NCBI RefSeq assembly: GCF_010692685.1 | Contig: NZ_JAAHGU010000008.1 | Coordinates: forward strand, 233,619-261,380 | DNA from: Okeania sp. SIO2F5 | GTDB taxonomy: Bacteria; Cyanobacteriota; Cyanobacteriia; Cyanobacteriales; Microcoleaceae | DNA length: 27,762 nucleotides | Reading direction: 5' to 3' | Shown: one piece after another, positions 3,910 through 27,762 of the stretch | Position numbering within the stretch: the first letter of the stretch is position 1 | Layout of the letters: the number at the start of each line of letters is the position of its first letter | The notes under the pieces: model-generated | The model's input: only the letters and a program-made list of their open reading frames with translations | What the model was told of the DNA's origin: nothing | The model's database searches: none | Made by a program: the position numbers and the translations under genes

Positions 3910-6900
3910 TCAATTTCCTGCAAATTTTTGATAATCTTCTAGTAACCAATGAGGCAGTTTAGTTATATCTTCGATTCGTAATTGTTCAGAACGACAATAT
4001 AACATTGCTGCTAATAAATAATTTATAGTTTTTGGTGCTTCTATTCCTTTGGCAAGTTGAGCAGCTAACTGTCGTAAAAATTCTTGTTCGCTTTCTATTA
4101 AAGATTCATTTTGAATTTTGCTATTGAGTAATGCTTGATAACCTTTACCCATTTCACCCAAGTAAAAAGTTTCTAGTTTTTGAGGTTCTAAATTTATCCA
4201 AAAATCAGCCATTTGTTTTCTGATTTGACGCAATTCTTGAACCACAGATTCATCAGATGGGTCAATATAGTAAAGATTCACACTGCCCAATAATTGATTG
4301 ATAAATTTTTGCTGTGGAATGTCTAAATTATCTGTTTGATTTGCTGTTAAAACTACATTTTTTTCTGGTCTAACTTCAGCAGTTGTGACTGGAGAATTTT
4401 CTGGTAGATGAGGGGATTTAGATTTAAAAGCTTTTTCCAACTTCTGGGCAACTTCTCGACTTTCAAATATCTGTTTATAATCATCTATCAACCACTGAGG
4501 TAAACGATTTTTAGCATCTCTGACTAACATTTTGCTTGGAGGAAAATATAACATTGCCCCTAAAAATGTATTGATAGCTTTTGGATTAGTTAAACCCATA
4601 CTTGTCTCAGCTAATTCTTTGAGAAATTTCTGTTCATCTTCGGTTTGAGGTTCGTTTTGAATTCCACTTTTTAATAAAGCTTGATATGCTTGTCTAATTT
4701 TGCCTTGATAAGTATTTTCTAATTCTTTGGGAGCTACAGCTAACCAAAAATCAGCTATTTGTTTACGAAGTTGACGTAATTCTTCTATTAAAGATTGGTC
4801 AGTAGGATCGATTTCGTAGAGATTCACACAACCAATCAAACGATTGATAAATTCAGAAGTTAAAGAATTTTTATCTGTAGATTCTATAGTTTTTGGCGCG
4901 TGAATATTTTGCCATTCTTGGAATAATTCTTGAAATAATTTACCTATCTGTGTAGAGTAACTAAGACTGTCTAAAAATGAAGGGTTTTGCTCAATTTTTT
5001 CCAGAATTTCTTGCCGCTTTTGTTGACGTAACTGAGGATTAGTTGCTAGTTTCACTACTAAATTAATATAACTCTCTTCCCCATCAGCAATAAGATCGTC
5101 CATCTTTATCTCTCTGAGCAATGCTGATGCTTGTCGAAACCTTAAAGCATTTCCTTCAACAACTACTGGTGGAACTCCGACCATGAGTGGATCGACCAGA
5201 GAGGTTGCACCACCGTAAGGGAAAGAGTCTAAATAAATATCCGCTAATTTCAAACATTCTTTGATATCTGCTTGACTTGGTAATGCTTTAATTACGACCA
5301 AGCGCTTACTGTCGATACCATGACGTTTCAAAACAGACCGCATCTGTTTGATAAAAGGGGCAAATCGATAAGAATTAGTCCAGTTAGGATTAAAAGGATA
5401 CAAGACTAAAATAGAATTGGGCACTTTTGCTAGGATTTTGGCCCAAGTCTCCCGCATCTCCGGTATAATTTTGTAGAAATTAGCTCCAGAAATAAATATG
5501 GTGGTTTGGTCGGTTGCCCCCCAACTAGAGCGAATTGGTTTTACTCCTGAGGGGGGTTCGGCGATCGCATATCGGAAACAGAGTCCGGAATCTTCTAGGT
5601 TGGCCAGTTTTTCTGTATAATGTTCTTGGGTTGTCTCTGTTGGTGCAGTAATTTTACCGGAGATATAGTAGTCTATGGAGTGCATCCCGGTGGTAGTGGG
5701 AGAATTGATGGATGTAATTTGTATTCTGGCCAGTTTGTGTATTGCCAGCAAGGTAGAATTTTTGATAGTAGCAGTAATATTAGAGCCAATAAATAGAATA
5801 TCAAGGTTGTCGTTGCGAATAATTTGTGCTTGACTTTTCAATTCTTCTGGTAGTTGTAGAAATTTATCGGCGTGACTTTGGCAATATTTTTCTAAGGGAT
5901 GTCCGTTAGATTTTATTGCATAGAGAAATATCTCAAATTTACTCCGGTCTAAATGTTCAAATACTGGGAGTAAGGAATATGTTTCTGTTTGGGGAGAATA
6001 ATGATCTTTGAGAATTCCCAAGCGAATTTTTGGGCGGTTAAATGGGCGGTCGTTCATCTTATAATCTAACTCTAACCCACGATTTTTTAGAGCAAATTCT
6101 ATAATTTCTGCACGCTTGATGTAGAGATTTTTTAAATTGGGCGTAGTAGTAAAATATAGAGGAATCCAATTAGCATTTTCCACAAAAAACCAGGCGATAA
6201 CTTGCCATAATTCTGAGTCTGGATTAGTGGATATATTGTTATGCACATAATTCAACCATCCTACTAGAAAATTATGATAATTATCTGTTTCTCCTATTTC
6301 TTGAAAAAGTTGGGGAGAGGCAAACATAAATTTTAAATAGTCTGTAGCAAACCAGCTAGGTATGGGAGCTTTTTCGTATTTAATTCCTAGTCGATCTGCT
6401 CTTTGATAAAGCATCCCTGCCAATAAATACTGAATGGCTAAAGGTTGGTTAAATCCTTTGGCAAAATTAGCTTTTATTTTGTCTACAAATCTTTGTTCTA
6501 TTTCAGTTAAAGTTTCGTCTTTTATACCACTTGCTAATAATGCTTTGTGTGCTTGACCAAATGCTCCCAAGTAAACATTTTTGAGTTCTTCCGAAGTTTG
6601 AATATTCAGCCAGCATTCTGCAATTTGCTTTCTAATTTCTTGCAATCTAACTAATGCTGATTCATCCAACTGGTTTTGCTGATAAAGCTGAATATTCTGA
6701 TTTATTTCTGTCAGAGATGGTAATAAATTAGTTTTAACAGTAGGAACAACTTTTTGTTGTTCTATAGACTGAGGTTTTGGAGAATTGACTGACTGATTTG
6801 GTGTCTTAATTAAATCTGTTTCCCCACTGACCAAAACAGAGATAAGTAAATTAACTACAGAAGGAGATTGACTACATTTAAGACCTTCACGAATTTGAGC

Positions 6901-9900
6901 GATCGCTCCATTAGTATTTCCTCCTTTCAACATAGAAGCAGCCATTTTTATTGCTTCAATTGCATAATGTTCCCTAGCTTTATCAGATAATTTTTCTGCC
7001 ATTTTTGTTGGTAAATAAGTTTGAGTAATTTCTATAGCTTTCCGAGCATTTTCTATATTACCGCCAGACTGCATTAAGCGGGAAGTTTCCGAGGAGGAAT
7101 GTAAACGGAAACAAGCCAAAATTTCCGGTTCAAACCAAATAGGATAAAAAGCAGTTATTCGCTTCCAAATTTCCCAATCAGCCGCCGAATCTGCCTGAGA
7201 ACAAAAACCTCCTAAATTTTCATAAACCTTACGTTTTACTACCATCCCCACAACTTGAATTCGTTGTTCAATAGTAATTTTTTCTAAGAAATTTTCTATA
7301 ATACCTGGAGTTTTTCTTTCCAACACAGACAAATACTTTTTCTGGTCATATTCATCTATATAATAGTGGCGACAAAATGCTGCTCCTACTGTTGTATTTT
7401 GTTCAATTCCACGACGTAATTTTTCATAAAAACCAGGCAAGACAAAATCATCATCATGGAGTAGATGAATCCAATATCCTTTTGCTCTTTGTAGACAAAT
7501 ATTAAAAATCGGAGCTTGACCAATATCTTGTGGAAAATGTCGATAAAAATTAACTCTTTCTCCCCCTACCTTTCGGACAATTGCTTCTATTTCAGCTTGA
7601 ATTTTATGGTCTGGACAATCATTTACGACTTCTATCTGCATTTCTTCTAGGGCAGGAGCTTGTTGCAATACACTTTTGAGAGTTTGCTCTAAATATTTCG
7701 CCTTTTTATAAGTAGGAATCATCACAGACCAAAACGGTCGATGGTTATTATCTGACAATGGATTAATTTCTGGATATTCAATACCCATTTGATTATTTTT
7801 GAGAGTAGCTATTTGAGGAAATTTTTCTATACCTACTTCTAGTTGTTGTTCTCGTCTTACCGTTGCCCAAATCCAAGGTTTAGCAGATTTTAAAGAAACT
7901 AAATTAAACCCCGCTGCCATTAATAAATCTTTTAATTTTTCTTCAGTATAAGCATTGCCAGAAAAATAATATTGTTGATCTTTTGCCCCTTCCTCATCAA
8001 AATTTCCTAAACTTTCAGCGCTGTGGTCATGTACTTTAATTCTCAAATATCCTCCCGGTTTCAAAACCCGAAATATTTCTCGGAAATAACTTTTGACAAT
8101 AGAAATAGAACGGATGTGCTGAAAAACTATCGTCGAAAAAACAAAGTCGTAATTTTCATCAGCTAACTGTTGCAAATCATCGCCATTATTAATATATAGC
8201 TCTCCATTTTGTTTCCCATCAGCTAAATATTGTCGGGCAAACTGAATCATATTTTCCGAAATATCTACACCATCTACCCGTGCAAATTTTTCTCGCAAAT
8301 ACTTAATAAGACGACCAACACCACAACCGATTTCTAATACTTTCCACTCTGGTTTAACAGGGATACCTTCCAGAATTTGTGGCACCCAAATTTCCATTAA
8401 CTCTTTCCTAACTTGCTTTTTTTGTCCTGGAGAAAGCGTCTCCATTCCACTGTAAGCTAAGACTCGCTCAAAAATAGCTTCATCTAAAGAATTAACATTC
8501 CTAAAATAGCGTTGTATTTCTAACTGCCCGTGATTTATTTGAAATTGAATTTTGCCTAAATTTTTCCTATCTTCCATACCAGATAATTCCTTTGATTTAA
8601 GCTGTATCTCTGACTCTCCATGATTTATTGGAGATGAAATTTCTCCTGACTTTTTCCTATCTTCCACACTAGAAAATTCCTTTGATTTAACCTGCATCTC
8701 TAAATCTCTATGATTTATTGGAAATGGAATTTCTCCTGACTTTTTCCTATCTTCCATAGCAGATAATCTCTCTACTTTAATCCGATTAAAAGTCTGGATA
8801 AATACATCAGTCATAATCTTAGCCATTCGAGACCAAGAAAACTTTTGAGCTTGTGCTAAACCAGCAGTTATTAATTGTTGCCGAACTTCTGATTTTTGCA
8901 CTTCACCCAAAGCATTTACCAATCCATTAACATCATTATCATTAATATATAAAGCTGCTCTTCCTGCCACTTCTGGAATTGAAGCATTTTTACAAGTAAT
9001 AACTGGACAACCACAAGCCATTGCTTCTAAAATAGGCAGTCCAAAACCTTCATATTTTGATGGATAAACTAAAGCCATCGCTCCAGAGTAAGCCGATTTT
9101 AATTCTTGGTCACTCAGTTGTAATAAATGAATTTTACTATCTGAAATATATTTGCTTAATTCTGGCTCTACTTTTCTATTTCCCCCTATACAAACAATCT
9201 CAAATTCTGCGGATTTTTTGAATTTAGCAAAAGCTTGAAAGAATAACATAGTATTTTTATAACCTAGCCAACCTATTCTCTCACCCACTATCAGAAAGTA
9301 TGGGCGATGAATGTTATATTTCAACTGAAAATTAGTAACTTCTTGAGGGGTCGCTCTAGAAAATTTAGGTTCAATTCCGCAGGGAGCTACTCTGATAGAA
9401 TTTGCGGATATTTGAGGAAAATATTTTACTAAATCACGAGCTGTATTTTCTGAAATTGAAATATAAGAAATTGCCTGTTTAATACTACGATGTTTTTCTT
9501 GCCATGAAGGGTTATCAAGATTTTTAGCTAAAACTTCTGGAATCATATCATAAGCCATAAATATAGATGGCGTTAAGATAGGTGTTGTGTAATAAGTAGA
9601 AATGAAAATATCAGCATTTTCTTCATCACATATTTGCTGCAAAATTTGACGGTCTGCATCTATTCTGCCGTAATTATATCCAGGGATAACACGATATTTT
9701 ATGCCGGGAATTTTTGGTGCAGTTTTTGCTCTGTCAAGCACTAAAATATTTTTAGCAAAACTATCTTTTGACCATACTTCCAACAAAGACTTCCAGACAC
9801 GGGCAATACCTGTATTATTTATTTGGAAAAATACACCATCAATAAGAACCTTGAAATCTAATAGCTGCCAATTTTTCGATTTTCTTTCGGCAATATTTTC

Positions 9901-11583
9901 AGAGTCTAACTCAGTTAACTGCTGCTGATTTTTTAGTTTCTTTTCTGTCACTTTTTCATAGTCTACCTCAGTTAAAGATTCTTTCCTTTTCTCAGGTTTA
10001 TATCTACCTATCCTAAATATGCTGTGAAACTCGGAATTTGATAAACTTTTCTCTGTTAATAAGTGCAGAGATTCTCCATCCGAACATAAATTAAGTTTAA
10101 ACTTTTGAGCAATTACAGATAATGCTTTTTTGTTAAATATAGAAATGTGTTGACCTTCTTCCAGAGCATAATACCACCAATCATTAGGACGAGGATTATC
10201 AGGTGGCAATAGCTTTGTACTAAATAAAATATTTCTAGTTTGTTGCAGTATCTTCTCAATTTCTGCCAGAGGATTTATGAAATGTTCAAATACTTCAAAA
10301 GCTGTGACTATTTCATATTTTTGTTCCCTATTTATTTCTCCTTCCCATCCTTGAGAAAAAATATTTTGGCAATATTTATCATATCCATAAAAATCTAATC
10401 CTAAGTCACGCATCATCCGGACAAATAAACCATACCCACACCCATAATCTAGGAATTTATCATTGGCATTAAAGAAGTTGAGAATTAAATTTTCTGTAAT
10501 CAAAGAAAAATTTTGATTTCTAGAAACCAAACCCACATCACTACTAGCAATTGCCTCTGTATAAGCTTCCCCTAACCAGTAAGGATTTTCCGTTTGTACA
10601 AAACCACAATTAGAACATTGAAAATAGTCAACATTATATTTATTTAAAACCTTAGCATTATCAAATTTGTGAGATATTGAACCACAAACTTTGCAATGAA
10701 CATTTTGAATTTGTAAACCACCACTAAACATTGTTTTTTCTGTAAAATTGTCTGCTGGAATATTACGAATAATAGAGGGAGGATGAGTCAGAGGAAAAAT
10801 CATTTCCTCCACAGACATATTGGCAAACTTATTAATACTTGAAGTGTGAGTAGCACCTTGACCAAAACCAATATTAGAAACTAAATTAACCTTGGGTAAA
10901 ATAGTTAAACCATGATAATTCCAACAGGCAAATGTCCAAGCATAAGCCCAAGAATTAAACCCTTGATAATTCTTCTGAAAAATCTCCGACCAATATTGAA
11001 CTGCCCTACTATTTTGTAGAATATTTTCTAACCACTTACTACCTCTAAGCTTCGACCATAATTGCATTTGATTATCATAATTTTTCCATGCTCTTCGCCA
11101 AGTTGCCCAACCCCAACAATGGGGATAGCGAGAGAAATAATAACTAGACTCTATTGGATTATTACCAAACTGAAAATTATCTCCAGATATAGCCATAATC
11201 CTCTCATCATTTCGATATCTTTCTAATAACTCTTCACAAAACCTAAAAAAAGTTAAATGAGGTACACAGTCATCCTCCAAAATAATTGCTGATTCTACCA
11301 AACTAAAAACCCAATTTAATCCATTATAAATACGCTCTCTACAACCTAAATTCTTCTCAGAATAATTAGTCAAAACTTCACAATTCCAATCAACCTGATC
11401 GATTATCTTTCTTGCTGCCATACACCTCTCAACTTCTCCATATCTATCGAGGCGAGGAGCATCAGCTATTACAAATAATTGAAGAGGCTTTACTTGACGA
11501 ATTGCCTCAAATACTTTTGCCGTTGTATCTGGTCGATTAAATATAATTATAACTACAGGAGTTGTTAATTGAAATTGAGTCAT
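3910..11583 (-). CDS. Giant multi-domain glycosyltransferase/methyltransferase (2557 aa). Domain order: GnT-I(GT13)-like GT-A; Zn-ribbon plus class I MTase; GT4; 3x31-aa repeat linker; class I MTase; GT2-like GT-A; helical module; OGT/GT41-like; two more helical modules.
   Basis: Uninterrupted 7.67-kb ORF with an ATG start. The motifs recognised in each domain are listed in the domain entries below. Confidence 0.9.
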   Translation of the reverse strand: MTQFQLTTPVVIIIFNRPDTTAKVFEAIRQVKPLQLFVIADAPRLDRYGEVERCMAARKIIDQVDWNCEVLTNYSEKNLGCRERIYNGLNWVFSLVESAIILEDDCVPHLTFFRFCEELLERYRNDERIMAISGDNFQFGNNPIESSYYFSRYPHCWGWATWRRAWKNYDNQMQLWSKLRGSKWLENILQNSRAVQYWSEIFQKNYQGFNSWAYAWTFACWNYHGLTILPKVNLVSNIGFGQGATHTSSINKFANMSVEEMIFPLTHPPSIIRNIPADNFTEKTMFSGGLQIQNVHCKVCGSISHKFDNAKVLNKYNVDYFQCSNCGFVQTENPYWLGEAYTEAIASSDVGLVSRNQNFSLITENLILNFFNANDKFLDYGCGYGLFVRMMRDLGLDFYGYDKYCQNIFSQGWEGEINREQKYEIVTAFEVFEHFINPLAEIEKILQQTRNILFSTKLLPPDNPRPNDWWYYALEEGQHISIFNKKALSVIAQKFKLNLCSDGESLHLLTEKSLSNSEFHSIFRIGRYKPEKRKESLTEVDYEKVTEKKLKNQQQLTELDSENIAERKSKNWQLLDFKVLIDGVFFQINNTGIARVWKSLLEVWSKDSFAKNILVLDRAKTAPKIPGIKYRVIPGYNYGRIDADRQILQQICDEENADIFISTYYTTPILTPSIFMAYDMIPEVLAKNLDNPSWQEKHRSIKQAISYISISENTARDLVKYFPQISANSIRVAPCGIEPKFSRATPQEVTNFQLKYNIHRPYFLIVGERIGWLGYKNTMLFFQAFAKFKKSAEFEIVCIGGNRKVEPELSKYISDSKIHLLQLSDQELKSAYSGAMALVYPSKYEGFGLPILEAMACGCPVITCKNASIPEVAGRAALYINDNDVNGLVNALGEVQKSEVRQQLITAGLAQAQKFSWSRMAKIMTDVFIQTFNRIKVERLSAMEDRKKSGEIPFPINHRDLEMQVKSKEFSSVEDRKKSGEISSPINHGESEIQLKSKELSGMEDRKNLGKIQFQINHGQLEIQRYFRNVNSLDEAIFERVLAYSGMETLSPGQKKQVRKELMEIWVPQILEGIPVKPEWKVLEIGCGVGRLIKYLREKFARVDGVDISENMIQFARQYLADGKQNGELYINNGDDLQQLADENYDFVFSTIVFQHIRSISIVKSYFREIFRVLKPGGYLRIKVHDHSAESLGNFDEEGAKDQQYYFSGNAYTEEKLKDLLMAAGFNLVSLKSAKPWIWATVRREQQLEVGIEKFPQIATLKNNQMGIEYPEINPLSDNNHRPFWSVMIPTYKKAKYLEQTLKSVLQQAPALEEMQIEVVNDCPDHKIQAEIEAIVRKVGGERVNFYRHFPQDIGQAPIFNICLQRAKGYWIHLLHDDDFVLPGFYEKLRRGIEQNTTVGAAFCRHYYIDEYDQKKYLSVLERKTPGIIENFLEKITIEQRIQVVGMVVKRKVYENLGGFCSQADSAADWEIWKRITAFYPIWFEPEILACFRLHSSSETSRLMQSGGNIENARKAIEITQTYLPTKMAEKLSDKAREHYAIEAIKMAASMLKGGNTNGAIAQIREGLKCSQSPSVVNLLISVLVSGETDLIKTPNQSVNSPKPQSIEQQKVVPTVKTNLLPSLTEINQNIQLYQQNQLDESALVRLQEIRKQIAECWLNIQTSEELKNVYLGAFGQAHKALLASGIKDETLTEIEQRFVDKIKANFAKGFNQPLAIQYLLAGMLYQRADRLGIKYEKAPIPSWFATDYLKFMFASPQLFQEIGETDNYHNFLVGWLNYVHNNISTNPDSELWQVIAWFFVENANWIPLYFTTTPNLKNLYIKRAEIIEFALKNRGLELDYKMNDRPFNRPKIRLGILKDHYSPQTETYSLLPVFEHLDRSKFEIFLYAIKSNGHPLEKYCQSHADKFLQLPEELKSQAQIIRNDNLDILFIGSNITATIKNSTLLAIHKLARIQITSINSPTTTGMHSIDYYISGKITAPTETTQEHYTEKLANLEDSGLCFRYAIAEPPSGVKPIRSSWGATDQTTIFISGANFYKIIPEMRETWAKILAKVPNSILVLYPFNPNWTNSYRFAPFIKQMRSVLKRHGIDSKRLVVIKALPSQADIKECLKLADIYLDSFPYGGATSLVDPLMVGVPPVVVEGNALRFRQASALLREIKMDDLIADGEESYINLVVKLATNPQLRQQKRQEILEKIEQNPSFLDSLSYSTQIGKLFQELFQEWQNIHAPKTIESTDKNSLTSEFINRLIGCVNLYEIDPTDQSLIEELRQLRKQIADFWLAVAPKELENTYQGKIRQAYQALLKSGIQNEPQTEDEQKFLKELAETSMGLTNPKAINTFLGAMLYFPPSKMLVRDAKNRLPQWLIDDYKQIFESREVAQKLEKAFKSKSPHLPENSPVTTAEVRPEKNVVLTANQTDNLDIPQQKFINQLLGSVNLYYIDPSDESVVQELRQIRKQMADFWINLEPQKLETFYLGEMGKGYQALLNSKIQNESLIESEQEFLRQLAAQLAKGIEAPKTINYLLAAMLYCRSEQLRIEDITKLPHWLLEDYQKFAGN
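3913..4900 (-). other. C-terminal pair of paralogous ~140-aa alpha-helical modules. A third copy lies at about 6300..6700, before the GT41-like domain.
   Basis: Shared pattern L(R/Q)(E/Q)(I/L)RKQ(I/M)A(E/D)(C/F)W(L/I)N/A...Y(L/Q)G...(A/G)(Y/H)(K/Q)ALL(A/K/N)SGI(K/Q)(D/N)E...(I/T)N(Y/T)(L/F)L(A/G)AMLY across all three copies. Confidence 0.7.
4930..6065 (-). other. Domain 6: OGT/HMW1C-type (GT41-like) glycosyltransferase catalytic domain
   Basis: RPKIRLGILKDHYSPQTETYSLLPVFEHLDRSKFEIFLY; IFISGANFYKIIPEMRETWAKILAKVPNSILVLYPF; DSFPYGGATSLVDPLMVGVPPVVVEGNALRFRQASALL. These are collinear with human OGT segments (RLRIGYVSSDFGNHPTSHL...; [75 protein letters not shown]). Recalled from memory. Confidence 0.6.
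6990..7750 (-). other. Domain 5: GT2-like GT-A glycosyltransferase
   Basis: WSVMIPTYKKAKYLEQTLKSVLQQ at the N-terminus, an acidic IEVVNDCPD region, and LLHDDDF as the DxD motif. Confidence 0.6.
7950..8480 (-). other. Domain 4: class I SAM methyltransferase (Methyltransf_11/23-like)
   Basis: VLEIGCGVGRLIKYL (motif I), DGVDISENM, VLKPGGYL. Confidence 0.75.
8490..8765 (-). repeat. Intragenic tandem repeat, about 3 x 93 bp, encoding (M/V)EDRKKSGEIxxPINHxxxEIQxKSKEFSx
   Basis: The DNA-level repeat is visible at 8560-8765 (ttttcctatcttccata/c... x3). The protein repeats are 31 aa each. It forms a linker between the GT4 and second MTase domains. Confidence 0.85.
8860..9890 (-). other. Domain 3: GT4-family (GT-B, retaining) glycosyltransferase
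   Basis: VLIDGVFFQINNTGIARVW at the N-terminus. EGFGLPILEAMACGCPVI (E-x7-E signature) at 8997-9050. Confidence 0.8.
10150..10710 (-). other. Domain 2: Cys4 zinc-ribbon plus class I SAM methyltransferase (the architecture of sugar C-methyltransferases)
   Basis: CKVCGS...(24 aa)...CSNCGF, then LDYGCGYGLFVRMMRDLG (motif I) and EIVTAFEVFEHF. Confidence 0.7.
10715..11575 (-). other. Domain 1 of the giant protein: GnT-I (GT13)-like GT-A glycosyltransferase domain. Proteins of this type are often annotated HlpA-like in bacteria.
   Basis: PVVIIIFNRPDTT...LFVIADAPR...AIILEDDCVPHLTFFRFCEEL...MAISGDNF...PHCWGWATWRRAW parallels GnT-I motifs (ILVIACDR / VVVEDDLEVAPDFFEYF / CVSAWNDNG / GLGWLL). Recalled from memory. 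Confidence 0.5.
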
Positions 11584-11811
11584 TTTTAGTTTAATAGGAA
11601 AGAAGGAAGAAGGAATAAGGAAGAGATAAGAAGGAATAAAGTAGATAAATCTACAGATAAATCAAGTTCAACTAAAGATTTGTTTAAGAAGGAGAAAGTC
11701 ATTTCAGTTATCAGTTATCAGTACCTCTGTAATAAAGAGGCTTTAAATACGAAATTATCTTTTTTTTTCCTTAAAAGAGGAGGCTTTAGACCAAGATTTT
11801 TCGGTAATAAA

Positions 11812-12205
11812 GTTGATAGCTGATATCTCACTACTGAATCCTGAGAAACTTTTAATTATGGAAAATATTTCCATTATTTTTTCTCCTTTCAAAGTAATCA
11901 AAACTGATAGCTGACTGCTGAGTGCTAAATGCTTATAAGCTAATAAAGCTGATAGCTGATACCTGAGTGCTGAATGCTTATAAACTTTTAATTATGGAAA
12001 ATATTTCCATTATTTTCCCCTCCTTTCAAAGTAATAAAAACTGATAGCTGAATGCTGAGTGCTAAATGCTTATCAGGTAAGAAAGCTGATAGCTGATACC
12101 TGAGTACTGAATGCTGAGAAACTTTTAATTCTGGGAAATATCTCAATTACTTTTTCCTCCTCTAAAGGTAATAAAGCTGAATCCTCACCGCTGAATGCTT
12201 AACCA
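11812..12205. promoter_or_regulatory. Three tandem ~137-bp repeats 230-620 bp upstream of the giant gene start. Each contains the near-palindrome atggaaaatatttccat, which is degenerate in copy 3.
   Basis: Copies at 11812-11947, 11948-12084 and 12085-12205. Each unit also carries ctgatagctga twice and ctgagtgctgaatgct. The palindromes are at 11858-11874 and 11994-12010. Confidence 0.6.
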
Positions 12206-12325: not shown

Positions 12326-12856
12326 TTATCCATTATCCATTAATGACGTCGCTTTATATAAAATATCTTGATGAGACCGTTCCAGTAAAGTCTCATTGAT
12401 AGAATTAGATAATACTGCAACAGGTTCATATAATGGTCTTAAAAAAGAGTCAATTGCTTTTCTATCTCCATAACGTACTTCTATCAACATAAACTTTGGT
12501 TGGTATTTATCAAAATCAATACCTTGCAACACATCTAATTCAAAACCTTCAACATCCAACGAAAACAAATCTATATTTTCAACTCCATACTTATCAAGAA
12601 TTGCAGTTAGTGTCCTTACTCGTACATTAATTTCATAACTATGATTAATATTTTGAACTTGACAACCCGCTTTTAAATGAACCTTTTTTTCCTCCTCTGA
12701 CTTCATAGCTCCATCAACAAAAGACATAAGATTACAATAGTACATTTTTATATAATCCTGACCATAATTAAAAGGAACCAAAGCATAATTTTCAACCGCT
12801 GACTTAGACCGATTAATTCTACATTTTTCTGCTAACTCTGGTATTGCCTCTATCAA
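12326..12856 (-). CDS. FkbM-family methyltransferase C-terminal portion. It is in the same frame as 12890..14038 and separated from it by a single TGA, so it is probably the continuation of that gene.
   Basis: IDLFSLDVEGFELDVLQGIDF is the characteristic FkbM motif (IDLLKIDVEGAE..VLKG). The ORF as listed begins with TTG, not ATG. The segment between the two ORFs (…SQSNT*YFEKYKNWQGILIEAIPE…) is in frame. Confidence 0.65.
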   Translation of the reverse strand: MIEAIPELAEKCRINRSKSAVENYALVPFNYGQDYIKMYYCNLMSFVDGAMKSEEEKKVHLKAGCQVQNINHSYEINVRVRTLTAILDKYGVENIDLFSLDVEGFELDVLQGIDFDKYQPKFMLIEVRYGDRKAIDSFLRPLYEPVAVLSNSINETLLERSHQDILYKATSLMDNG

Positions 12857-12889
12857 AATACCTTGCCAGTTTTTGTACTTCTCAAAATA

Positions 12890-14038
12890 TCAAGTATTAC
12901 TTTGACTTATCCCATCATTCGCCCCAGCTTCAATAAAAAATCCATTTTCCCAAGTTAAGTAAGAAGCAAGTTTAAGATCGAGCTGATTCAAAGCATAAGA
13001 TTTTCTCATTAAATCAGGTTTTATTTCTAATGCCTTTTGCTGATAAATATTAGCCTCAAATAATCTACCCTGTTTCTGTAAAATATTACCAATACTCCAA
13101 TATATACCTGCCGACTTTGGTTCAAGTGCAATAACTTTTTGATAGTAAGCGTTCGCCTGTTCTAGCTGACCTTTTTGGGAATAAATTTTGCCTAGTTTTG
13201 CATAAACTATTGCCAAGTTTGGTTGTGATTTTATTGCTTTGTTATAAGAACGAATAGACTTTTCAATTTGACCTTTAGAATAATAAAAATCCCCTAATCC
13301 CTGATAAGCTTCAGCAGCATAAGGTTGATTTTTAATAGCTTCGTAATAAGCCAAAATCTGATTATCTTGACTGTCTAGATTTTTATTTTTTCTTTTAGCT
13401 CTTGCTTCACCTTGACCCAAAGAAATACCCAAGCAAGACTGCTTTTGACTAGGTAATTTTAAATCCGATAAAAAATCATCACTTTGAAAAAAAATAGAAG
13501 TACAGCTTTTATATCTTTGACTAGGAACTAAACCATAAAAATCAATACGTTTAAATCCTTGATGATGAAGCAAAATTACTCCCCTATCATTTTCCTCTCT
13601 ATCCGAATTATCAAATACTATCCAGCCATTTTTAGATAATTTTTCACCACATATTTCAGCACATTTAACTCGCTCAATTCCATCAATAATAATCACATCA
13701 AAATCACCATTATCATAATTCTGAATTTCCTCAACATATCTTTGCCTATCTTCCCTCAAAACTAGCTTCACATTTTGAGGAATATAAGTTGAAACATTGA
13801 CAAAATAATCAGGATTATGTTCTACAGAAACCACCTGCTTAACTCGGTCAGCGTACCAAAAAGTTGACTGTCCGCTCCCATATTCAAATACTCGAAAATC
13901 GCTCTTTAACTTATCCTCAATAAATTCAATAGCAGGATAAGAATACCAAGGAAGAGGATGATAATTATAATCTATAGATTTTCCTTCTTTTAATGAATTG
14001 AGCCATCCTGAAGTTTCTAGATAGTTCAAATTAGTCAT
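12890..14038 (-). CDS. N-terminal part of a methyltransferase-TPR-FkbM protein: class I MTase-like domain, then 4 TPR repeats, then the FkbM SAM-binding motif. It ends at an in-frame TGA.
   Basis: ATG start. VFEYGSGQSTFW...DVIIIDGIER (MTase-like). AYYEAIKNQPYAAEAYQGLGDFYYSKGQIEKSIRSYNKAIKSQPN... (TPR). The C-terminus FIEAGANDGISQS is the FkbM-family motif I. Confidence 0.75.
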   Translation of the reverse strand: MTNLNYLETSGWLNSLKEGKSIDYNYHPLPWYSYPAIEFIEDKLKSDFRVFEYGSGQSTFWYADRVKQVVSVEHNPDYFVNVSTYIPQNVKLVLREDRQRYVEEIQNYDNGDFDVIIIDGIERVKCAEICGEKLSKNGWIVFDNSDREENDRGVILLHHQGFKRIDFYGLVPSQRYKSCTSIFFQSDDFLSDLKLPSQKQSCLGISLGQGEARAKRKNKNLDSQDNQILAYYEAIKNQPYAAEAYQGLGDFYYSKGQIEKSIRSYNKAIKSQPNLAIVYAKLGKIYSQKGQLEQANAYYQKVIALEPKSAGIYWSIGNILQKQGRLFEANIYQQKALEIKPDLMRKSYALNQLDLKLASYLTWENGFFIEAGANDGISQSNT

Positions 14039-14584: not shown

Positions 14585-14850
14585 TCCCCAAGAGAACGCC
14601 ATATCCATCAGACCAACAAAAAAGAGAACTCCGTATTCTCTTGCCTCCCTATGACAGCAAGTACTGATAACTAATAACTGATAACTGAAATGACTGTTTA
14701 CTTAATTACCGAACAACATTATCAAAATAATTGGGTCGCGCAACCCCACCTTTTAAGGCGAAATATTCTTGAAACCTTGCTCAAATCCCCTACTTCCCCT
14801 CCACCGGAGGGGGAGGGGCGAGGGGTGGGTTAACTTCTGACTTCTGACTT
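14585..14850 (-). mobile_element. Inverted copies of MITE modules C (14585-14695) and A (14740-14850), a mirror of the left flank of the locus
   Basis: The reverse complement of 14600-14695 matches 3425-3520. The reverse complement of 14740-14850 matches 2935-3062, including aatatt[t/g]cgccttaaaagg[t/c]ggggtt and the AGTCAGA tract. Confidence 0.65.
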
Positions 14851-14990
14851 CTGACTTCAAATCCCCGTTACAAAAATAACTTCTGACTTCTAACTTTTGA
14901 GTTTTGACTTCAAATCCCCGTTACAAAAATAACTTCTAACTTTTGACTTTTGAGTTTTGACTTTTGACTTTAATCTACTGTGATATTATA
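14850..14990. repeat. STRR heptamer block (CTTCTGA / CTTTTGA) with an embedded ~50-bp tandem duplication (caaatccccgttacaaaaataacttct x2)
   Basis: Direct reading. Confidence 0.8.
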
Positions 14991-15073: not shown

Positions 15074-16915
15074 GTGAATAATAAAAGGTGGAGAAATGCT
15101 GGCCTATATGCCCTATTAGCAATAGTAGTCATCGCCTTAGCAACAGCATTCTTCGATCAACAACCCCAAACCAGCGAAACCTGGAAATATAGTCAATTTA
15201 TTCAGCAGGTAGAAACCAAAAACGTAGACAGAGTAAGCATCAGCGCCGACCGTACAGCAGCACGAGTCAAAGTCGCCGACGGTAGTATAGTCCGCGTTAA
15301 CCTACCCAACGACCCAGACCTAATAAACATCCTCACCAAAAACAACGTAGACATTTCCGTACTCCCCCAAAGCGAAGAAGGTTTCTGGGTTAGAGCATTA
15401 AGTAGTTTATTCTTCCCCGTCCTATTATTAGTGGGACTATTTTTCCTACTACGTCGTGCCCAAAGTGGACCTGGTAGCCAAGCTATGAACTTTGGTAAAT
15501 CCAAAGCAAGAGTCCAAATGGAACCCCAAACCCAAGTCACATTCGGCGATGTAGCAGGTATTGAACAAGCCAAACTAGAACTAACAGAAGTAGTAGACTT
15601 CCTCAAAAATGCTGATCGCTTCACAGCAGTAGGCGCAAAAATTCCCAAAGGAGTATTGTTAGTAGGTCCTCCGGGAACAGGTAAAACCCTATTAGCAAAA
15701 GCAGTAGCTGGGGAAGCAGGAGTACCATTCTTCTCCATCTCCGGTTCAGAATTTGTAGAAATGTTTGTGGGTGTAGGTGCTTCCCGCGTCCGCGACCTAT
15801 TTGAACAAGCAAAATCTAACGCTCCCTGTATCGTATTTATAGATGAAATTGATGCGGTGGGTCGTCAACGGGGTGCTGGTTTAGGTGGTGGTAATGATGA
15901 AAGAGAACAAACCCTCAACCAGCTACTTACCGAAATGGACGGTTTTGAAGGCAATACAGGTATCATTATTATTGCAGCTACTAACCGCCCAGATGTTCTA
16001 GATGCTGCCCTACTCCGACCAGGTCGTTTTGACCGTCAAGTAGTAGTAGACCGCCCTGACTATGCAGGTCGTCTAGAAATTCTCAATGTTCATGCTCGTG
16101 GTAAGAGTCTATCTAAAGATGTAGACCTAGAAAAAATTGCTCGTCGAACTCCTGGATTTACTGGAGCAGACTTGTCTAACCTATTAAATGAAGGAGCTAT
16201 TTTGGCAGCTCGTCGCAACTTAACTGAAATCTCTATGGACGAAGTTAATGATGCTATTGACCGGGTATTAGCTGGTCCAGAAAAGAAAGACCGAGTAATG
16301 AGCGAGAAGCGTAAGGAGTTAGTAGCGTATCACGAAGCTGGTCATGCTTTAGTCGGAGCGTTGATGCCTGATTATGACCCAGTACAGAAAATTAGTATTA
16401 TTCCTCGCGGTCGTGCTGGTGGTTTGACTTGGTTTACTCCTAGCGAAGACCGGATGGACTCTGGTTTGTATTCTCGTGCTTATCTACAAAATCAGATGGC
16501 TGTAGCTTTGGGTGGTCGTCTTGCTGAGGAGATTATTTTTGGTGATGAAGAGGTGACTACTGGTGCTTCTAACGATTTACAGCAGGTTGCTAATGTGGCA
16601 AGGCAAATGGTGACTCGCTTTGGCATGAGCGATCGCCTTGGTCCAGTTGCTCTTGGTCGTCAGAACGGTAATATGTTCTTAGGTAGGGATATTATGGCGG
16701 AGCGTGATTTTTCTGAGGAAACTGCTGCTGCTATTGATGATGAGGTGCGCAATTTGGTAGAGCAAGCTTATCGTCGGGCGAAGGAAGTATTGGTAACTAA
16801 CCGTCATATTTTGGATAAGTTAGCCGAGATGTTGGTTGACAAGGAGACTGTAGACTCTGATGAGTTACAGGAGTTGTTGGCAACTAATGATGTGAAGATG
16901 GCGGCTTTGATATAG
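15074..16915 (+). CDS. ftsH: ATP-dependent zinc metalloprotease FtsH
   Basis: GTG start 11 nt after AAGGAG. Two N-terminal TM helices, Walker A GPPGTGKT, Walker [10 protein letters not shown], second region of homology (ATNRPDVLD), and HEAGHAL zinc-binding motif. Full length, 613 aa. Confidence 0.95.
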
Positions 16916-17939: not shown

Positions 17940-18690
17940 CTTTCTAATTCTTTCTTCTCCTAAATTTAGCAGGCTTAAATGGAGTTGCTTGCCTATACGC
18001 ATGACTTTTTATTCAATTAATTTTCCTTACTCAAAGGCGATGAACTATTCAGGATTTTTTTCCCAGAAGCAATACCACCAAGATTTTCATTCTCTGAAGC
18101 TCAAGAACTACTTACTTATTTCTTCTCTAATCAAATCTTTCCATCCATGGCAATTGAGTGAAAAATTACCAAGATTTTCATTCTCTGAAGCTCCGAAAAA
18201 AAATCGCGACTCAAAGGAATTTCCGGTTGCATCCTCACAAAAATTCTGATATCATCAGATTTAAATGGGGCTGTTCGTCTATGCGCATGACTTTTTATTC
18301 AACAAAATTCCCTTGCTTAGAGGCGATGAACTATTTAGGAATTTTTTCCCTGAAGCAATACCACCAAGATTTTCATTCTCTGAAGCTACCTGAAGAATAC
18401 TGATTTTTCCCTCATCAAATCTTTCCATCTATTGGGACTTAAACAAAATAGAGCCAGAAAATAGGCTTAAATATAGACGGGCAAAGGCTTTTACGTCAAA
18501 AAGGTATAAATCCTGAATTACCAAAGGTTCTAGCCATTTTTAGGGAATCGACGTAATTCCCTTGTCTAGAGTGGCTTTGACGCATTTTTTCGACCAGAAA
18601 ATGTTTAAGTACCACTATGACGATTGAGTGGAAAATCACCAATTTTTTTTTCATTCTCGGAAGCTCCTCCAGAAAAAATCGCGACATCCC
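17940..18690. repeat. Repeat block: two ~135-bp copies at 287-bp spacing (17975-18110 and 18262-18395) plus two partial copies (18168-18215 and 18636-18690, the latter inverted in part). It contains the recurring core ccaagattttcattctctgaagct.
   Basis: ttaaatgg(a/g)g(t/c)tg(c/t)t(t/c)g(c/t)ctat(a/g)cgcatgactttttattcaa...aggcgatgaactatt...gaagcaataccaccaagattttcattctctgaagct occurs twice. The three six-frame ORFs here are translations of the repeats. Confidence 0.75.
18481..18592 (-). mobile_element. MITE-like element F, minus orientation. Other copies are at 23120..23290 (+) and a split copy at 22262..22700.
   Basis: Reverse complement gcgtcaaagccactctagacaagggaattacgtcgattccctaaaaatggctagaacctttggtaattcaggatttatacctttttgacgtaaaagcc matches the other copies. 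Confidence 0.6.
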
Positions 18691-18804
18691 GTTAGCAGAG
18701 ATTATCCGTTAGGATAAACCCAACATTAGTAAGGTTTTGTTGGGTTGAACGGTAGTGAAACCCAACCTACTAAACTCTGACTTTTGACTTTTGACTTGTC
18801 CTAT

Positions 18805-19428
18805 ATGAGCAATCTTTCTTACAGTAAATTCACATTGGAAATAGCCAAGACAAATTTTGAATTAACCTTAGAAGAAAATCAAGATTTATTCGCCCAAATT
18901 AAACCAGTTAAACCTTCTGAAATTCTCACAACTATCTTACGAGAATATATTCCATTAGCAACAGCTATTAATACAGAAAAAGCTCGTTCTGAACTATTAA
19001 TTTCTCAAATTTTAGCTGATGTGAGACGGCAATTAAATTATCGAATTAGTCTTTTTTCAGGAACAGAATTTAACGTAGAAGCAGAATTAGGATTACAAGG
19101 ATATTGTGATTTTTTGCTCAGTTTTTCCTCCGAACAATATTTCATTACAGCTCCAGTGATTATCATTGTTGAAGCTAAAAATGAAAATATTATTCGTGGG
19201 TTAGGACAATGTGTTGCTAGTATGGTTGGAGCGCAATTATTTAATCAGCGAGCTGATAATCCAGTTAAGGTTATTTATGGCGCAGTTACAACTGGAACAA
19301 ATTGGAAGTTTTTAACACTTGAAGAAAAAATTGTGTGTATAGATGCAGTGGAATATTACGTCAAAGAAGTTGATAAAATTTTAGGAATTATTTTACAGCC
19401 ATTTCGAGAATATCGAGAAAATTCTTGA
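18805..19428 (+). CDS. Hypothetical protein (207 aa) with a possible PD-(D/E)xK nuclease-like core (GYCDFLL ... VIIIVEAKNE)
   Basis: The ORF as listed starts with TTG at 18784. The first ATG is at 18805 (MSNLSYSKF). The D...E-x-K spacing is suggestive only. Confidence 0.55.
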   Translation: MSNLSYSKFTLEIAKTNFELTLEENQDLFAQIKPVKPSEILTTILREYIPLATAINTEKARSELLISQILADVRRQLNYRISLFSGTEFNVEAELGLQGYCDFLLSFSSEQYFITAPVIIIVEAKNENIIRGLGQCVASMVGAQLFNQRADNPVKVIYGAVTTGTNWKFLTLEEKIVCIDAVEYYVKEVDKILGIILQPFREYRENS

Positions 19429-19598: not shown

Positions 19599-20138
19599 AT
19601 GAAAATTATACAAAGTCGCATAGCAAAGGTTTTACTTGCAAGTATTATCGCTCTCTTAACAATTTTTACATCTGTTGTGAATCCTCAAGGTATCTCTGGT
19701 GTTCTATTTGCTCAGAAACCCAATGGAGAATTGTCATACTATAGCTATAGTGGTTTGCCAGACCGTAATAACTTTAACAACAATGGTAATGAAAGGGTAA
19801 TATCTAGCGGTTGGAATATTTACAGCAAGATTTTTTCAGGAGGTTCTGGTGTTCTATTTGCTCAGAAATCCAATGGAGAATTGTCATACTATAGCTATAG
19901 TGGTTTGCCAGACCGTAATAACTTTAACAACAATGGTAATGAAAGGGTAATATCTAGCGGTTGGAATATTTACAGCAAGATTTTTTCAGGAGGTTCTGGT
20001 GTTCTATTTGCTCAGAAACCTAATGGAGAATTATCATACTATAACTATAGTGGCTCGCCAGACCTTAATAACTTCAACAACAATGGTAATGAAAGGGTAA
20101 TATCTAGCGGTTGGAATATTTACAGCAAGATTTTCTAA
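19599..20138 (+). CDS. Small secreted protein: signal peptide plus three near-identical 47-aa tandem repeats (GVLFAQKPNGELSYYSYSGLPDRNNFNNNGNERVISSGWNIYSKIFSGGS)
   Basis: RBS AAGGAAGG 7 nt upstream of the ATG. Hydrophobic N-terminus KVLLASIIALLTIFTSVV. DNA repeats of 141 bp x3 at about 19700-20122 with more than 95% identity. Confidence 0.8.
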   Translation: MKIIQSRIAKVLLASIIALLTIFTSVVNPQGISGVLFAQKPNGELSYYSYSGLPDRNNFNNNGNERVISSGWNIYSKIFSGGSGVLFAQKSNGELSYYSYSGLPDRNNFNNNGNERVISSGWNIYSKIFSGGSGVLFAQKPNGELSYYNYSGSPDLNNFNNNGNERVISSGWNIYSKIF

Positions 20139-20351: not shown

Positions 20352-22172
20352 CTACTGAACTCTAAAATTATTAATTACCTCAATTTTCCTATTTCCTTTT
20401 TCCTCTTTCCTTTTTCCTTCTTCCTTCTTCCCTCTTCCTTCTTCCTTCCTCACACAATTAGCATCCAAAACCAATAAACTATCATTCTCAAAAACAGTAC
20501 AAGTAGATATAGTTGTTGCCAAAGCAGGAATATATCCCAACTGCAAAAAAGTAACCGCATCCTGTGCAGGTTCATATTGCATTAACCAACTATTATCCTC
20601 AATATATTCTGGCGTAAAACTACCACGATGTAACATCCAAAAATCAATTCCATACTTTTGAATAAAATTTTTCACATCTGCTAAATCTGAACTATATTGA
20701 GCAACAATTAAATCTATAGTTCGTTGCCGAAATTGACTGTAATAACCAACTTGATAAGGAATAGCATATTCCCTACCCAACAAAATAGAACGTTGAGCAA
20801 ATGTAGGTAATAAATTTGCCTCTTCCTCCAAAGAAGCAATCAAAATATCTTGAGGTTGTGCTTGAAAAAAGCTATATAAATCTGTAGCTCTACCCACTTT
20901 ATATTTCACCAGAGGAAAGCCTTTAACAAAAGCAGGATATAACACCAGAGATGCCATAATTAAACTCGTTAAAATTAAAGAAATAATACCCTGAAATTTA
21001 ACAGGATATTTTTGTCTATTTTCTGCCCAATTAAACAAAGCATCAATAATTAAAGTCAGAGCGATCGCCGTTGCCAAAGCAATAATTATCCGGAAACTTA
21101 ATCCTGTATATCTACTCGGAAGATGCAACCGAAAAAGTAAGGCATGAGCAATGAAAAACATTGCCAAAGATGACAGTAATAGATGTACTAATAACCAAAT
21201 TCTATTAGTAATACTTCTGATTAAAGGAAAAGCAGATTTAAAAGTCAATAAAAACGGCAATAATAATCCTGCACATTGAGTAGCTGGAGTAAATAAAGAC
21301 TTAGGAAACATTCCACTACGTTTGCCAGTTAACCAAAAATCTTTTGGATGAACGTGAAAAAAAGTACTCCTCCCATTTGGATAAAACTCTCTTAATTTCA
21401 TCGCTGCTTCTCGACTAATAGCAGGTCCGAATTCTGAAGAAGTTAAAGCGTAGGGTAATAAAACAAAAAATGCCGTGCTTAAACCAACTCCACAAAATAG
21501 AAAAGTCCGTTTTTCTGATGATAACTGAAACCTCCCATTTTTCCAGTAAATTAGTTGGAAAATTAGAATGCCAGAAGCGATAAATACATATTGAGGATAA
21601 AATAATCCGACCAGAGCAATCGCTATTCCCATTCTGACCAATGAACCTTGGAGTAAATAATATAAAAAAGCCAGAAAAAATGGATAAACAAATGCTCTAG
21701 GTGTAGCAGAAGCAACATCATCTTTCATCCAAATAGCTTGATTCATTACCAAAGCAGCAATAAATCCTGCCATTGGTACTGGTAATATCTCTAAACAGAT
21801 TTGAAAAATATAGTAAGTACAAATTAAACCCAAAATAAAAGGGATAATTTTGGCAAAGATAAACGGGTTAATTCCTATAATTGCTGCACTTTTATAAAGT
21901 AAAGTATATCCTGCTGGAGCTACTGACTGAAAATAATTAGCAATTAAATCATTGGGGAATAAATCTGGATAAAAAAAACGCTGCATCCAAAAAATATGTT
22001 GTCTAGCATCATCTTGAATACTCAGACTACTAGCAAAAGCTTTTTTAAGTGTCATAAAAGCATAAATTGTAGCAAAAGTCATGCTAAGGCTAAACCAAAA
22101 TATCACCCCTTTACAAGATTTTTCATCTACGATAGGGGTAGTTAAAAATTTATGTATATTTGTCATTAACAT
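20352..22172 (-). CDS. Polytopic membrane protein (606 aa, at least 12 predicted TM helices plus a C-terminal soluble domain). Possibly a GT-C-fold glycosyltransferase.
   Basis: ATG start. Long hydrophobic stretches throughout the N-terminal 400 aa. A DD motif (SIQDDARQH) lies in the first predicted extracytoplasmic loop, as in the ArnT/PMT/STT3-type enzymes. The C-terminal tail KEEGRGKKEEGKRKEEKG is encoded by an STRR tract (20390-20450). Confidence 0.7.
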   Translation of the reverse strand: MLMTNIHKFLTTPIVDEKSCKGVIFWFSLSMTFATIYAFMTLKKAFASSLSIQDDARQHIFWMQRFFYPDLFPNDLIANYFQSVAPAGYTLLYKSAAIIGINPFIFAKIIPFILGLICTYYIFQICLEILPVPMAGFIAALVMNQAIWMKDDVASATPRAFVYPFFLAFLYYLLQGSLVRMGIAIALVGLFYPQYVFIASGILIFQLIYWKNGRFQLSSEKRTFLFCGVGLSTAFFVLLPYALTSSEFGPAISREAAMKLREFYPNGRSTFFHVHPKDFWLTGKRSGMFPKSLFTPATQCAGLLLPFLLTFKSAFPLIRSITNRIWLLVHLLLSSLAMFFIAHALLFRLHLPSRYTGLSFRIIIALATAIALTLIIDALFNWAENRQKYPVKFQGIISLILTSLIMASLVLYPAFVKGFPLVKYKVGRATDLYSFFQAQPQDILIASLEEEANLLPTFAQRSILLGREYAIPYQVGYYSQFRQRTIDLIVAQYSSDLADVKNFIQKYGIDFWMLHRGSFTPEYIEDNSWLMQYEPAQDAVTFLQLGYIPALATTISTCTVFENDSLLVLDANCVRKEEGRGKKEEGKRKEEKGNRKIEVINNFRVQ

Positions 22173-23530: not shown

Positions 23531-23923
23531 ATGGAACCACCAATTGAAAGAATACGACTTTCTCAAACAGCTAAAGATCAGTTAACTAAGCTGAAACGTA
23601 ATACCAAAATAGACCAATGGAATATTCTTTGTCGTTGGGCATTTTGTTGCTCTTTAGCAGAATCAAGCATTCCCTCTCTAGTACCAACCCCTGCTGATAG
23701 TAATTTAGAATTAACATGGAGAATTTTCGGTGGAGAATTTTCTGACATCTTTTTATTAGCTCTAAAGCAACGTTGTTATAATGATCAAATAGGCATAGAA
23801 AGAGAAACTTTGGCCACTCAGTTTCGCCTACACTTGCATCGAGGTATTGGATATTTAGCTGGTAACCCAAATATCAAAAGGATAGAAGACTTAATTGCAA
23901 CTGTGATTCCTTCTCTCGACTAA
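23531..23923 (+). CDS. Small protein (130 aa), possibly a DndE-like family member
   Basis: ATG start. The N-terminal IRLSQTAKDQLTKLKRNTKIDQWNILCRWAFCCSL resembles my recollection of the DndE-family N-terminal motif (RLS..AKDQL..LKRRTGI.NWNVLCRWA). No other dnd genes are present. Confidence 0.5.
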   Translation: MEPPIERIRLSQTAKDQLTKLKRNTKIDQWNILCRWAFCCSLAESSIPSLVPTPADSNLELTWRIFGGEFSDIFLLALKQRCYNDQIGIERETLATQFRLHLHRGIGYLAGNPNIKRIEDLIATVIPSLD

Positions 23924-27313: not shown

Positions 27314-27608
27314 TTTTGGGGATGGTAGATATATAGTATTTTTAAATTTTAATTTAATTTATACCTTATTACCAGAATAGCTCTTAGCATAGGTTAATCA
27401 GTCATATTCTAAAGCATGGTGAAGTTCTCTCTCGTTAAAATCGGAGATGATAACGGGAGCTTCTCAAACAAAGAAGTTTCTTGCTCCTGCTGGCGCAACG
27501 TTGCACGAACACAGGTTGATTAACGTCTTACGCCTCCACAAGCAGGCAAGATGATACCCACCTCGTTTAATGTTTTATTGCAATATGTTAATTGCAGCAT
27601 TCTCATCT

Positions 27609-27662
27609 CTATCTAAAACTATTTTACATAATGGACTATCTAAAACTATTTTACATAATGGA
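27609..27662. repeat. Perfect 27-bp tandem duplication (ctatctaaaactattttacataatgga x2), about 300-350 bp upstream of the ftsZ start codon
   Basis: Direct reading shows 27609-27635 identical to 27636-27662. Confidence 0.9.
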
Positions 27663-27762
27663 CAAGAATGAATTCTAACTGATCAAGTTAATGGTACTTT
27701 CTGACCACAATTACTACAATGAGTGAAAGGTATGATTCGGGTTGACTTTAATTACATGAACA

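Follow-up and report, generated by a model that had tools for sequence, protein, structure and literature searches.

The interrupted gene and its neighbours

The window analysed here (the whole stretch of DNA, 27,762 nucleotides) comes from Okeania sp. SIO2F5; Okeania is a filamentous marine cyanobacterium and the sister genus of Trichodesmium. Two of its minus-strand open reading frames (14038..12890 and 12856..12326) lie in the same frame, and translation showed that the sole separator between them is a TGA at 12892..12890. The listed second ORF begins at the TTG at position 12856 because this is the first possible start codon there. The translation of 14038..12326 as a whole is 570 codons long and contains a single internal stop (...FIEAGANDGISQSNT*YFEKYKNWQGILIEAIPE...), and past the TGA the frame stays open for 187 codons of conserved sequence until the TAA at 12328..12326. 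The initial annotation had described two ORFs in one frame with a single in-frame TGA, and this is confirmed by the translation as well as by the match to the FkbM methyltransferase family, which runs unbroken across the stop: translated through the stop, with codon 383 written as X, the sequence gives a single match to PF05050 over residues 371–523 with 75.9 bits (cut-off 22.7 bits), and also exceeds the cut-off of TIGR01444 from NCBIfam (57.4 bits against 37.7 bits). The FkbM domain is not encoded here in one unbroken frame, as the TGA at codon 383 lies inside it. The first ORF, said in the same annotation to end exactly after the GANDG motif, actually ends six residues past GANDG; the FkbM IDLFSLDVEGFELDVL motif assigned to the second ORF is present there. 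The pair of ORFs is not a chance juxtaposition, since 99% of the joined sequence can be aligned with full-length orthologues. The features of the locus are collected in Table 1.

Table 1. Positions of the interrupted gene, its parts and its two neighbours in the window
Feature	Position	Strand	Description or basis
Ancestral gene, 570 codons + TAA	12326..14038	-	N-terminal methyltransferase-like domain + TPR + FkbM; broken at codon 383
Premature TGA, codon 383	12890..12892	-	TTA (Leu) in relatives; mutated base 12891, T->G
Remaining ORF, 382 aa, ATG start	12890..14038	-	N-terminal domain and TPRs complete; of FkbM only beta1 + glycine loop
Remainder of FkbM domain, codons 384-570, 564 nt	12326..12889	-	Untranslated, nearly undamaged
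N-terminal class I SAM-methyltransferase-like domain, residues 1-200	13439..14038	-	AlphaFold2, Foldseek
TPR region, eight helices, about four hairpins, residues ~207-339	13022..13420	-	Pfam, P0001 model, Foldseek
FkbM methyltransferase domain, residues ~346-565, broken by the stop	12344..13003	-	PF05050, TIGR01444
Giant 2557-aa glycosyltransferase/methyltransferase gene, downstream, intact	3910..11583	-	Pfam, synteny
ftsH, divergent upstream neighbour, intact	15074..16915	+	Pfam, synteny

The giant downstream gene combines Methyltransf_23, GT1, Methyltransf_11, GT2 and GT41-like domains (Pfam). It ends in TGA TGA, and another ORF of the window also ends in TGA. One genome per species was scanned for the locus, which led to 12 orthologous loci (L001–L012) in Okeania, Trichodesmium, Dapis and a Microcoleaceae MAG; the gene order ftsH / methyltransferase-TPR-FkbM gene / giant glycosyltransferase/methyltransferase gene is found in all 12. 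This conserved pairing suggests that the products of the interrupted gene and of the giant gene may act on the same glycan. A literature search on FkbM enzymes as glycan methyl-capping enzymes, the role on which the initial annotation had drawn, returned nothing usable.

Domain architecture and position of the stop in the fold

The AlphaFold2 model of an orthologue (P0001, pLDDT 93.8) consists of an N-terminal seven-strand beta/alpha domain (residues ~45–185), eight helices (207–339) and a FkbM Rossmann domain starting at residue 367. The protein of about 560 residues that had been proposed, with two methyltransferase-like domains and about four TPRs, is thus upheld at the fold level, with an ancestral length of 570 codons. 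The TPR region is also supported by Pfam, with TPR_11, TPR_2, TPR_8 and TPR_1 exceeding their cut-offs over residues 242–343, and its Foldseek matches are consensus TPR proteins and the TPRs of O-GlcNAc transferase. As these TPR and O-GlcNAc transferase matches swamped the Foldseek query with the whole three-domain protein, the N-terminal domain was modelled alone (window residues 1–205), which gave the same seven-strand beta/alpha topology with a pLDDT of 92.7 and a pTM of 0.90. Its best matches in the PDB are catechol O-methyltransferases (E 7e-8, TM 0.55–0.59), and the top set comprises these and other SAM methyltransferases with E values of 7e-8 to 1e-6. The resemblance to COMT-like class I methyltransferases includes the predicted fold, a GSGxS loop that follows beta1 and an acidic residue that ends beta2, although sequence identity is only 12–17%. 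The match of this domain to Pfam Methyltransf_24 is slightly below the cut-off (24.7 bits against 26.3), and phmmer searches of the PDB with both methyltransferase domains gave only spurious weak matches such as eIF1A and SAS-6.

In the FkbM domain of the P0001 model, beta1 (367–371) is followed by the glycine-rich SAM loop that contains GANDG (372–382) and by helix alphaA (383–389). Residue 383 is therefore the first of helix alphaA, directly after the SAM-binding loop. The class I Rossmann fold with a glycine loop after beta1 is a property of the ancestral sequence, as seen in this model, and of neither fragment; because the stop falls at the first alphaA residue, neither fragment can form the FkbM fold. 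Translation in Okeania sp. SIO2F5 would end right after beta1 and the SAM-binding loop, and the FkbM activity would be lost. On the other hand, none of the residues that are invariant among 38 homologues is missing from the N-terminal domain and TPRs of the 382-aa product; this product, with both of these modules whole, may still be made and may remain a working single-function protein, judging from sequence conservation.

Orthologues and the ancestral codon

A protein search returned five full-length relatives (P0001–P0005) of 563–571 aa, with 71–83% identity over 99% of the joined sequence. Intact orthologues include those of Trichodesmium erythraeum IMS101, Okeania SIO3B5 and Okeania SIO3I5, the closest intact protein being WP_293078978.1 of Okeania sp. 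SIO3B5 (P0122, 564 aa), and at the DNA level five of the orthologous loci (L002–L005 and L010) carry an intact gene. The locus of T. erythraeum IMS101 (NC_008312.1:5752342-5774039, L004) and the SIO3B5 protein P0122 share the three modules and the synteny with the Okeania window gene at 77–92% identity; unlike it, both have a TTA leucine codon at position 383 and an unbroken frame.

The initial annotation had expected tryptophan or leucine at the position of the TGA, and the codon aligned with it is TTA (Leu) in 12 of 12 orthologous loci. Six of six further O. hirsuta-type assemblies also have TTA at codon 383. With TTA in all of these loci and assemblies, the lesion is therefore one T->G transversion at position 12891, through which a stop would have replaced a conserved leucine codon. 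Among the 52 homologues that carry the QS[ND][ST] motif, the residue that follows the motif is L (38 cases), Y, V, M or K; neither W nor C occurs at this residue in any of them. Within the same set only one protein ends at the site (P0006), and none starts just after it. Modular versions of the protein do occur in nature, as TPR-FkbM proteins of about 350–400 aa and as N-terminal domains fused to other methyltransferase domains.

The interruption is very probably a recent and ordinary nonsense mutation, TTA to TGA at Leu-383, that truncates a three-module methyltransferase gene. Three origins had been considered in the initial annotation: a nonsense mutation is now strongly supported, a sequencing error appears unlikely and natural stop suppression is unsupported.

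Independent lesions in related lineages

Fourteen lineages, the Okeania window included, were classed by probing with the intact SIO3B5 protein and by direct translation. The gene is damaged in nine of them and intact in the remaining five (SIO3B5, P01_H01_bin.35, T. erythraeum IMS101, SIO3I5 and the Trichodesmium MAG jk18x7bins.61). A single nonsense codon is found in three lineages: the TGA at codon 383 in the Okeania window, a GAR->TAA change at codon 293 in O. hirsuta PAB10Feb10-1 and five sister assemblies (leaving ORFs of 292 aa and 227 aa), and a change from a glutamate codon to a stop near codon 416 in the Microcoleaceae MAG. In another group the N-terminal domain is destroyed and the TPR-FkbM ORF is kept, which is the case in Dapis BLCC M126 (11 stops), Dapis BLCC M172 and a Trichodesmium sediment MAG. 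The gene is heavily broken in Okeania KiyG1 (stops and a frameshift), in the Okeania MAG of locus L012 (7 stops plus frameshifts, and the insertion of an IS605-type TnpB gene identified by Pfam) and in Okeania SIO3C4 (L081), which has a TGG->TAG change at codon 363 and in which the sequence past about codon 380 is replaced by a frameshifted tnpB element.

Since each of the nine lesions is at a different place, they are independent; the Okeania window allele would be one case of a clade-wide, piecemeal loss that its relatives reached in at least eight other ways. Some of the lesions are module-specific: the N-terminal domain is destroyed and TPR-FkbM kept in L007, L008 and L009, and the window, L006 and L081 retain the N-terminal domain and TPRs with FkbM destroyed. 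The neighbours fared differently, as the giant gene (7.6 kb) has a long unbroken frame in all loci that cover it except L011 (Okeania KiyG1), in which it is in two pieces, and ftsH is intact in all loci that cover it. Repeated damage next to an intact giant gene and an intact ftsH is the pattern that a dispensable accessory gene should show in a pseudogene-rich lineage, and the methyltransferase-TPR-FkbM gene is such a gene, lost piecemeal across Okeania, Dapis and Trichodesmium. The genomes of the Trichodesmium/Okeania lineage are described as having a larger non-coding fraction than those of any other cyanobacteria, along with many pseudogenes (PMC3141437), and as being only ~60% coding (PMC4143802); the main ORFs cover ~64% of the window. 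Piecemeal loss of this gene fits these known pseudogene-rich genomes of low coding density.

Age of the mutation and selection

The changes specific to the window lineage were judged by comparison with O. hirsuta L001 (32 differences) and SIO3B5 L002, which are closest to it. Downstream of the stop there are three of them: P552L, which alters a conserved proline, and two synonymous changes. Because almost no lineage-specific change has accumulated downstream of the stop, the mutation is recent, and the 564 nt at the 3' end would be a young remnant that has not yet decayed. The dN/dS ratio downstream of the stop against close relatives is 0.11–0.36, a value that rests on only these three lineage-specific changes. 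A low ratio past the stop would also fit continued function; with three changes it carries no weight.

Among the intact orthologues, dN/dS is mostly 0.14–0.25 in the FkbM domain (range 0.14–0.49), 0.17–0.39 in the N-terminal domain and 0.30–0.58 in the TPRs, values that show purifying selection on the intact orthologues.

Alternative explanations

The alternative that survives best accepts the same lesion and supposes that the loss was selected. The FkbM module (in Dapis, the N-terminal module) would have been shed to the benefit of the cell, with an altered methylation of surface glycans that allows, for example, escape from phages or grazers. Independent hits in nine of 14 lineages point in this direction, when the neighbouring gene, 4.5-fold larger, is interrupted in one locus only, and so do the module specificity of the lesions in several lineages and the fixation of the O. 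hirsuta allele across six assemblies. However, relaxed selection in a lineage known to accumulate pseudogenes (PMC3141437) predicts the pattern equally well, and the loci L011 and L012 show wholesale decay, so this explanation is regarded as possible but unlikely. Somewhat more doubtful still is the proposal that the module-specific disabling amounts to a slow, mutation-driven switch of surface-glycan methylation under diversifying selection by phages or grazers, in which the 382-aa protein would still be active as a methyltransferase with a single function. Read as a switch, the lineages fall into those without FkbM (the window, the Microcoleaceae MAG and SIO3C4) and those without the N-terminal module (Dapis and a Trichodesmium MAG), and the O. 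hirsuta gene is split between the modules.

A sequencing or assembly error, in which the true base would be T, the codon TTA and the gene an ordinary intact one of 570 codons, requires a single wrong base only; the essentially undamaged state of the part downstream of the stop is compatible with it, and the related genomes are mostly draft assemblies or MAGs. Nevertheless, the 382-aa ORF is 100% identical to P0006, which is WP_287274538.1, a RefSeq MULTISPECIES entry for unclassified Okeania recorded on 3 contigs, and a sequencing error is disfavoured because the same product underlies this entry, the independence of the contigs being that implied by the database label. Additionally, substitution errors in a consensus are rare, and the comparable TAA allele at codon 293, identical in six separate O. 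hirsuta-type assemblies, indicates that such alleles are real in the genus. An error is therefore considered very unlikely. A scan of JGI metagenome contigs for 35 nt spanning the site, in which the mutated position was left as N, had 0 matches.

It is highly improbable that the gene has become a functional split, in which the 382-aa product and a polypeptide re-initiated at the TTG of codon 395 or later would together rebuild an active FkbM enzyme. This TTG is preceded by AAGG, and the natural occurrence of modular versions of the protein is in line with such an arrangement. In opposition, the break lies within the Rossmann fold, after the SAM loop and before alphaA, and a product that starts at codon 395 would be without beta1, the loop and alphaA. 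No database protein begins there, and the 176-aa ORF with the TTG start is absent from the protein collection. Orthologues split naturally at the same position, the case named in the initial annotation as contradicting a lesion, were looked for and none was found: no orthologue is split there and none of the 52 homologues starts just after the site, and this candidate was rejected.

The weakest alternative is programmed recoding, in which the full-length enzyme would be made by readthrough of the TGA or by its decoding as selenocysteine or tryptophan; it is hardly credible, even though the frame runs on for 187 codons with conserved sequence and UGA is the leakiest bacterial stop codon, since no orthologue has a stop at codon 383, all of them having a TTA leucine codon, and none of the 52 homologues has Cys or Trp at the corresponding residue. 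Low-level readthrough of UGA is general in bacteria. The base at +4 after the TGA is U, which in the tetranucleotide stop signals of E. coli is a context of efficient termination and counts against recoding. The TGA that naturally ends the adjacent giant gene indicates that the standard code applies. The 71 nt from the stop are no more stably folded than shuffled sequences, with a minimum free energy of -8 kcal/mol where the shuffles average -8.2 (z = 0.10), and no Rfam family reached its gathering score in the window. Selenocysteine insertion and other recoding were rejected on the conserved leucine at the site, the lack of a 3' structure and the use of TGA as a stop by nearby genes.

Comparison with known systems and implications

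The ordinary nonsense mutation thus remains the preferred reading, and nothing at the locus is outside known biology. In common with the FkbM family (PF05050 Methyltransf_21, TIGR01444), the domain passes the cut-offs and has GANDG after beta1 and an acidic LDVEG motif. Unlike typical members, it is fused to TPRs and to a second methyltransferase-like domain, and in the window it is interrupted past the SAM loop, which makes it a disabled member. The stop is derived and one base from a sense codon, and intact orthologues span both fragments, as is found in truncated genes. Nonsense and frameshift pseudogenes of the Trichodesmium/Okeania lineage are a kind already known; the window gene is like them in having a disabling mutation confined to a single lineage while intact orthologues exist, and differs from them in being very young, with one stop and no further decay, and in that its upstream two-thirds may encode a working protein. 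'Truncated gene' describes the locus better than 'dead gene'. What is mildly notable is the number of independent and partly module-specific inactivations.

For annotation, WP_287274538.1, named 'tetratricopeptide repeat protein' in RefSeq, is better described as the front part of a methyltransferase-TPR-FkbM gene, truncated and with its FkbM domain disabled, than as a plain TPR protein. Should strains with intact and with broken alleles turn out to differ in glycan methylation, the broken alleles would be natural knock-outs that could be used to assign the substrate of the enzyme, presumably a glycan.

Mosaic Divergence and Allelic Differences within the FkbM Gene

The divergence of the methyltransferase-TPR-FkbM gene (FkbM gene) of the window from its orthologues in O. 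hirsuta PAB10Feb10-1 and Okeania SIO3B5 is not uniform along its length. Over the 5' two-thirds O. hirsuta is the nearer of the two (dS 0.03, against 0.14 for SIO3B5); in the 3' third the order is reversed, SIO3B5 being the nearer (dS 0.04) and O. hirsuta the more distant (dS 0.085). This mosaic pattern suggests inter-strain recombination inside the gene.

O. hirsuta-type assemblies (L001, L082-L087) carry a TAA at orthologue codon 293, which falls in the third TPR and breaks the gene between modules. The ORFs left over are one of 292 aa for the N-domain and one of 227 aa that starts at an internal Met and holds a complete FkbM domain. The O. hirsuta allele could in principle still give two working proteins, and in that respect the allele of the window differs from it.

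Repeats and Mobile DNA

Main ORFs cover only ~64% of the 27.8-kb window (GC 34.7%), in agreement with published accounts of Trichodesmium, whose coding density is low. A 137-bp tandem repeat lies in the 742-bp spacer between the FkbM gene and the giant glycosyltransferase/methyltransferase gene. Its unit is matched in ~10 overlapping registers in SIO3B5 (L002 12001-13479), and therefore its copy number differs among strains. The 53-bp repeat and the longer repeat block, both intergenic, are of a type common in the Okeania/Trichodesmium lineage, which has repeat-rich non-coding DNA.

Upstream of ftsZ, the window closes with ~345 nt that correspond to one end of an IS605-type TnpB element, the rest of which is cut off by the window edge; the part present is presumed to be the tnpB 3' end or the omega-RNA region. 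Matching stretches are found in SIO3B5 (L002 5998-6285) and in the Okeania MAG with the heavily broken FkbM gene (L012 4696-5007), where the TnpB element inserted in the FkbM gene is of the same kind.

Repeats, mobile DNA and further ORFs of the window
Feature	Position	Strand	Details
137-bp tandem repeat	11803-12175		2.7 copies, 87% matches
53-bp tandem repeat	14831-14963		2.5 copies, upstream of ftsH
Repeat block	~17970-18432		intergenic tandem repeats; several registers matched in orthologous loci L005 and L011 (Okeania KiyG1)
Sizeable ORF	18784-19428		no Pfam match at E <= 1e-5
Tachylectin-like ORF	19599-20138	+	PF14517, E 1.5e-17
Sizeable ORF	20352-22172		no Pfam match at E <= 1e-5
DndE-family ORF	23531-23923	+	PF08870, E 1e-42
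TnpB-element end	27418-27762

Other ORFs of the Window

The DndE-family ORF adjoins an ORF with a ComFB domain. No other dnd genes were seen within the 27.8-kb window, and this ORF may be an orphan DndE homologue. The DNA of the tachylectin-like ORF is internally repetitive, with repeats that reach ~20345, and extra tandem copies of it are found in Dapis BLCC M126 (L008 4870-6592).
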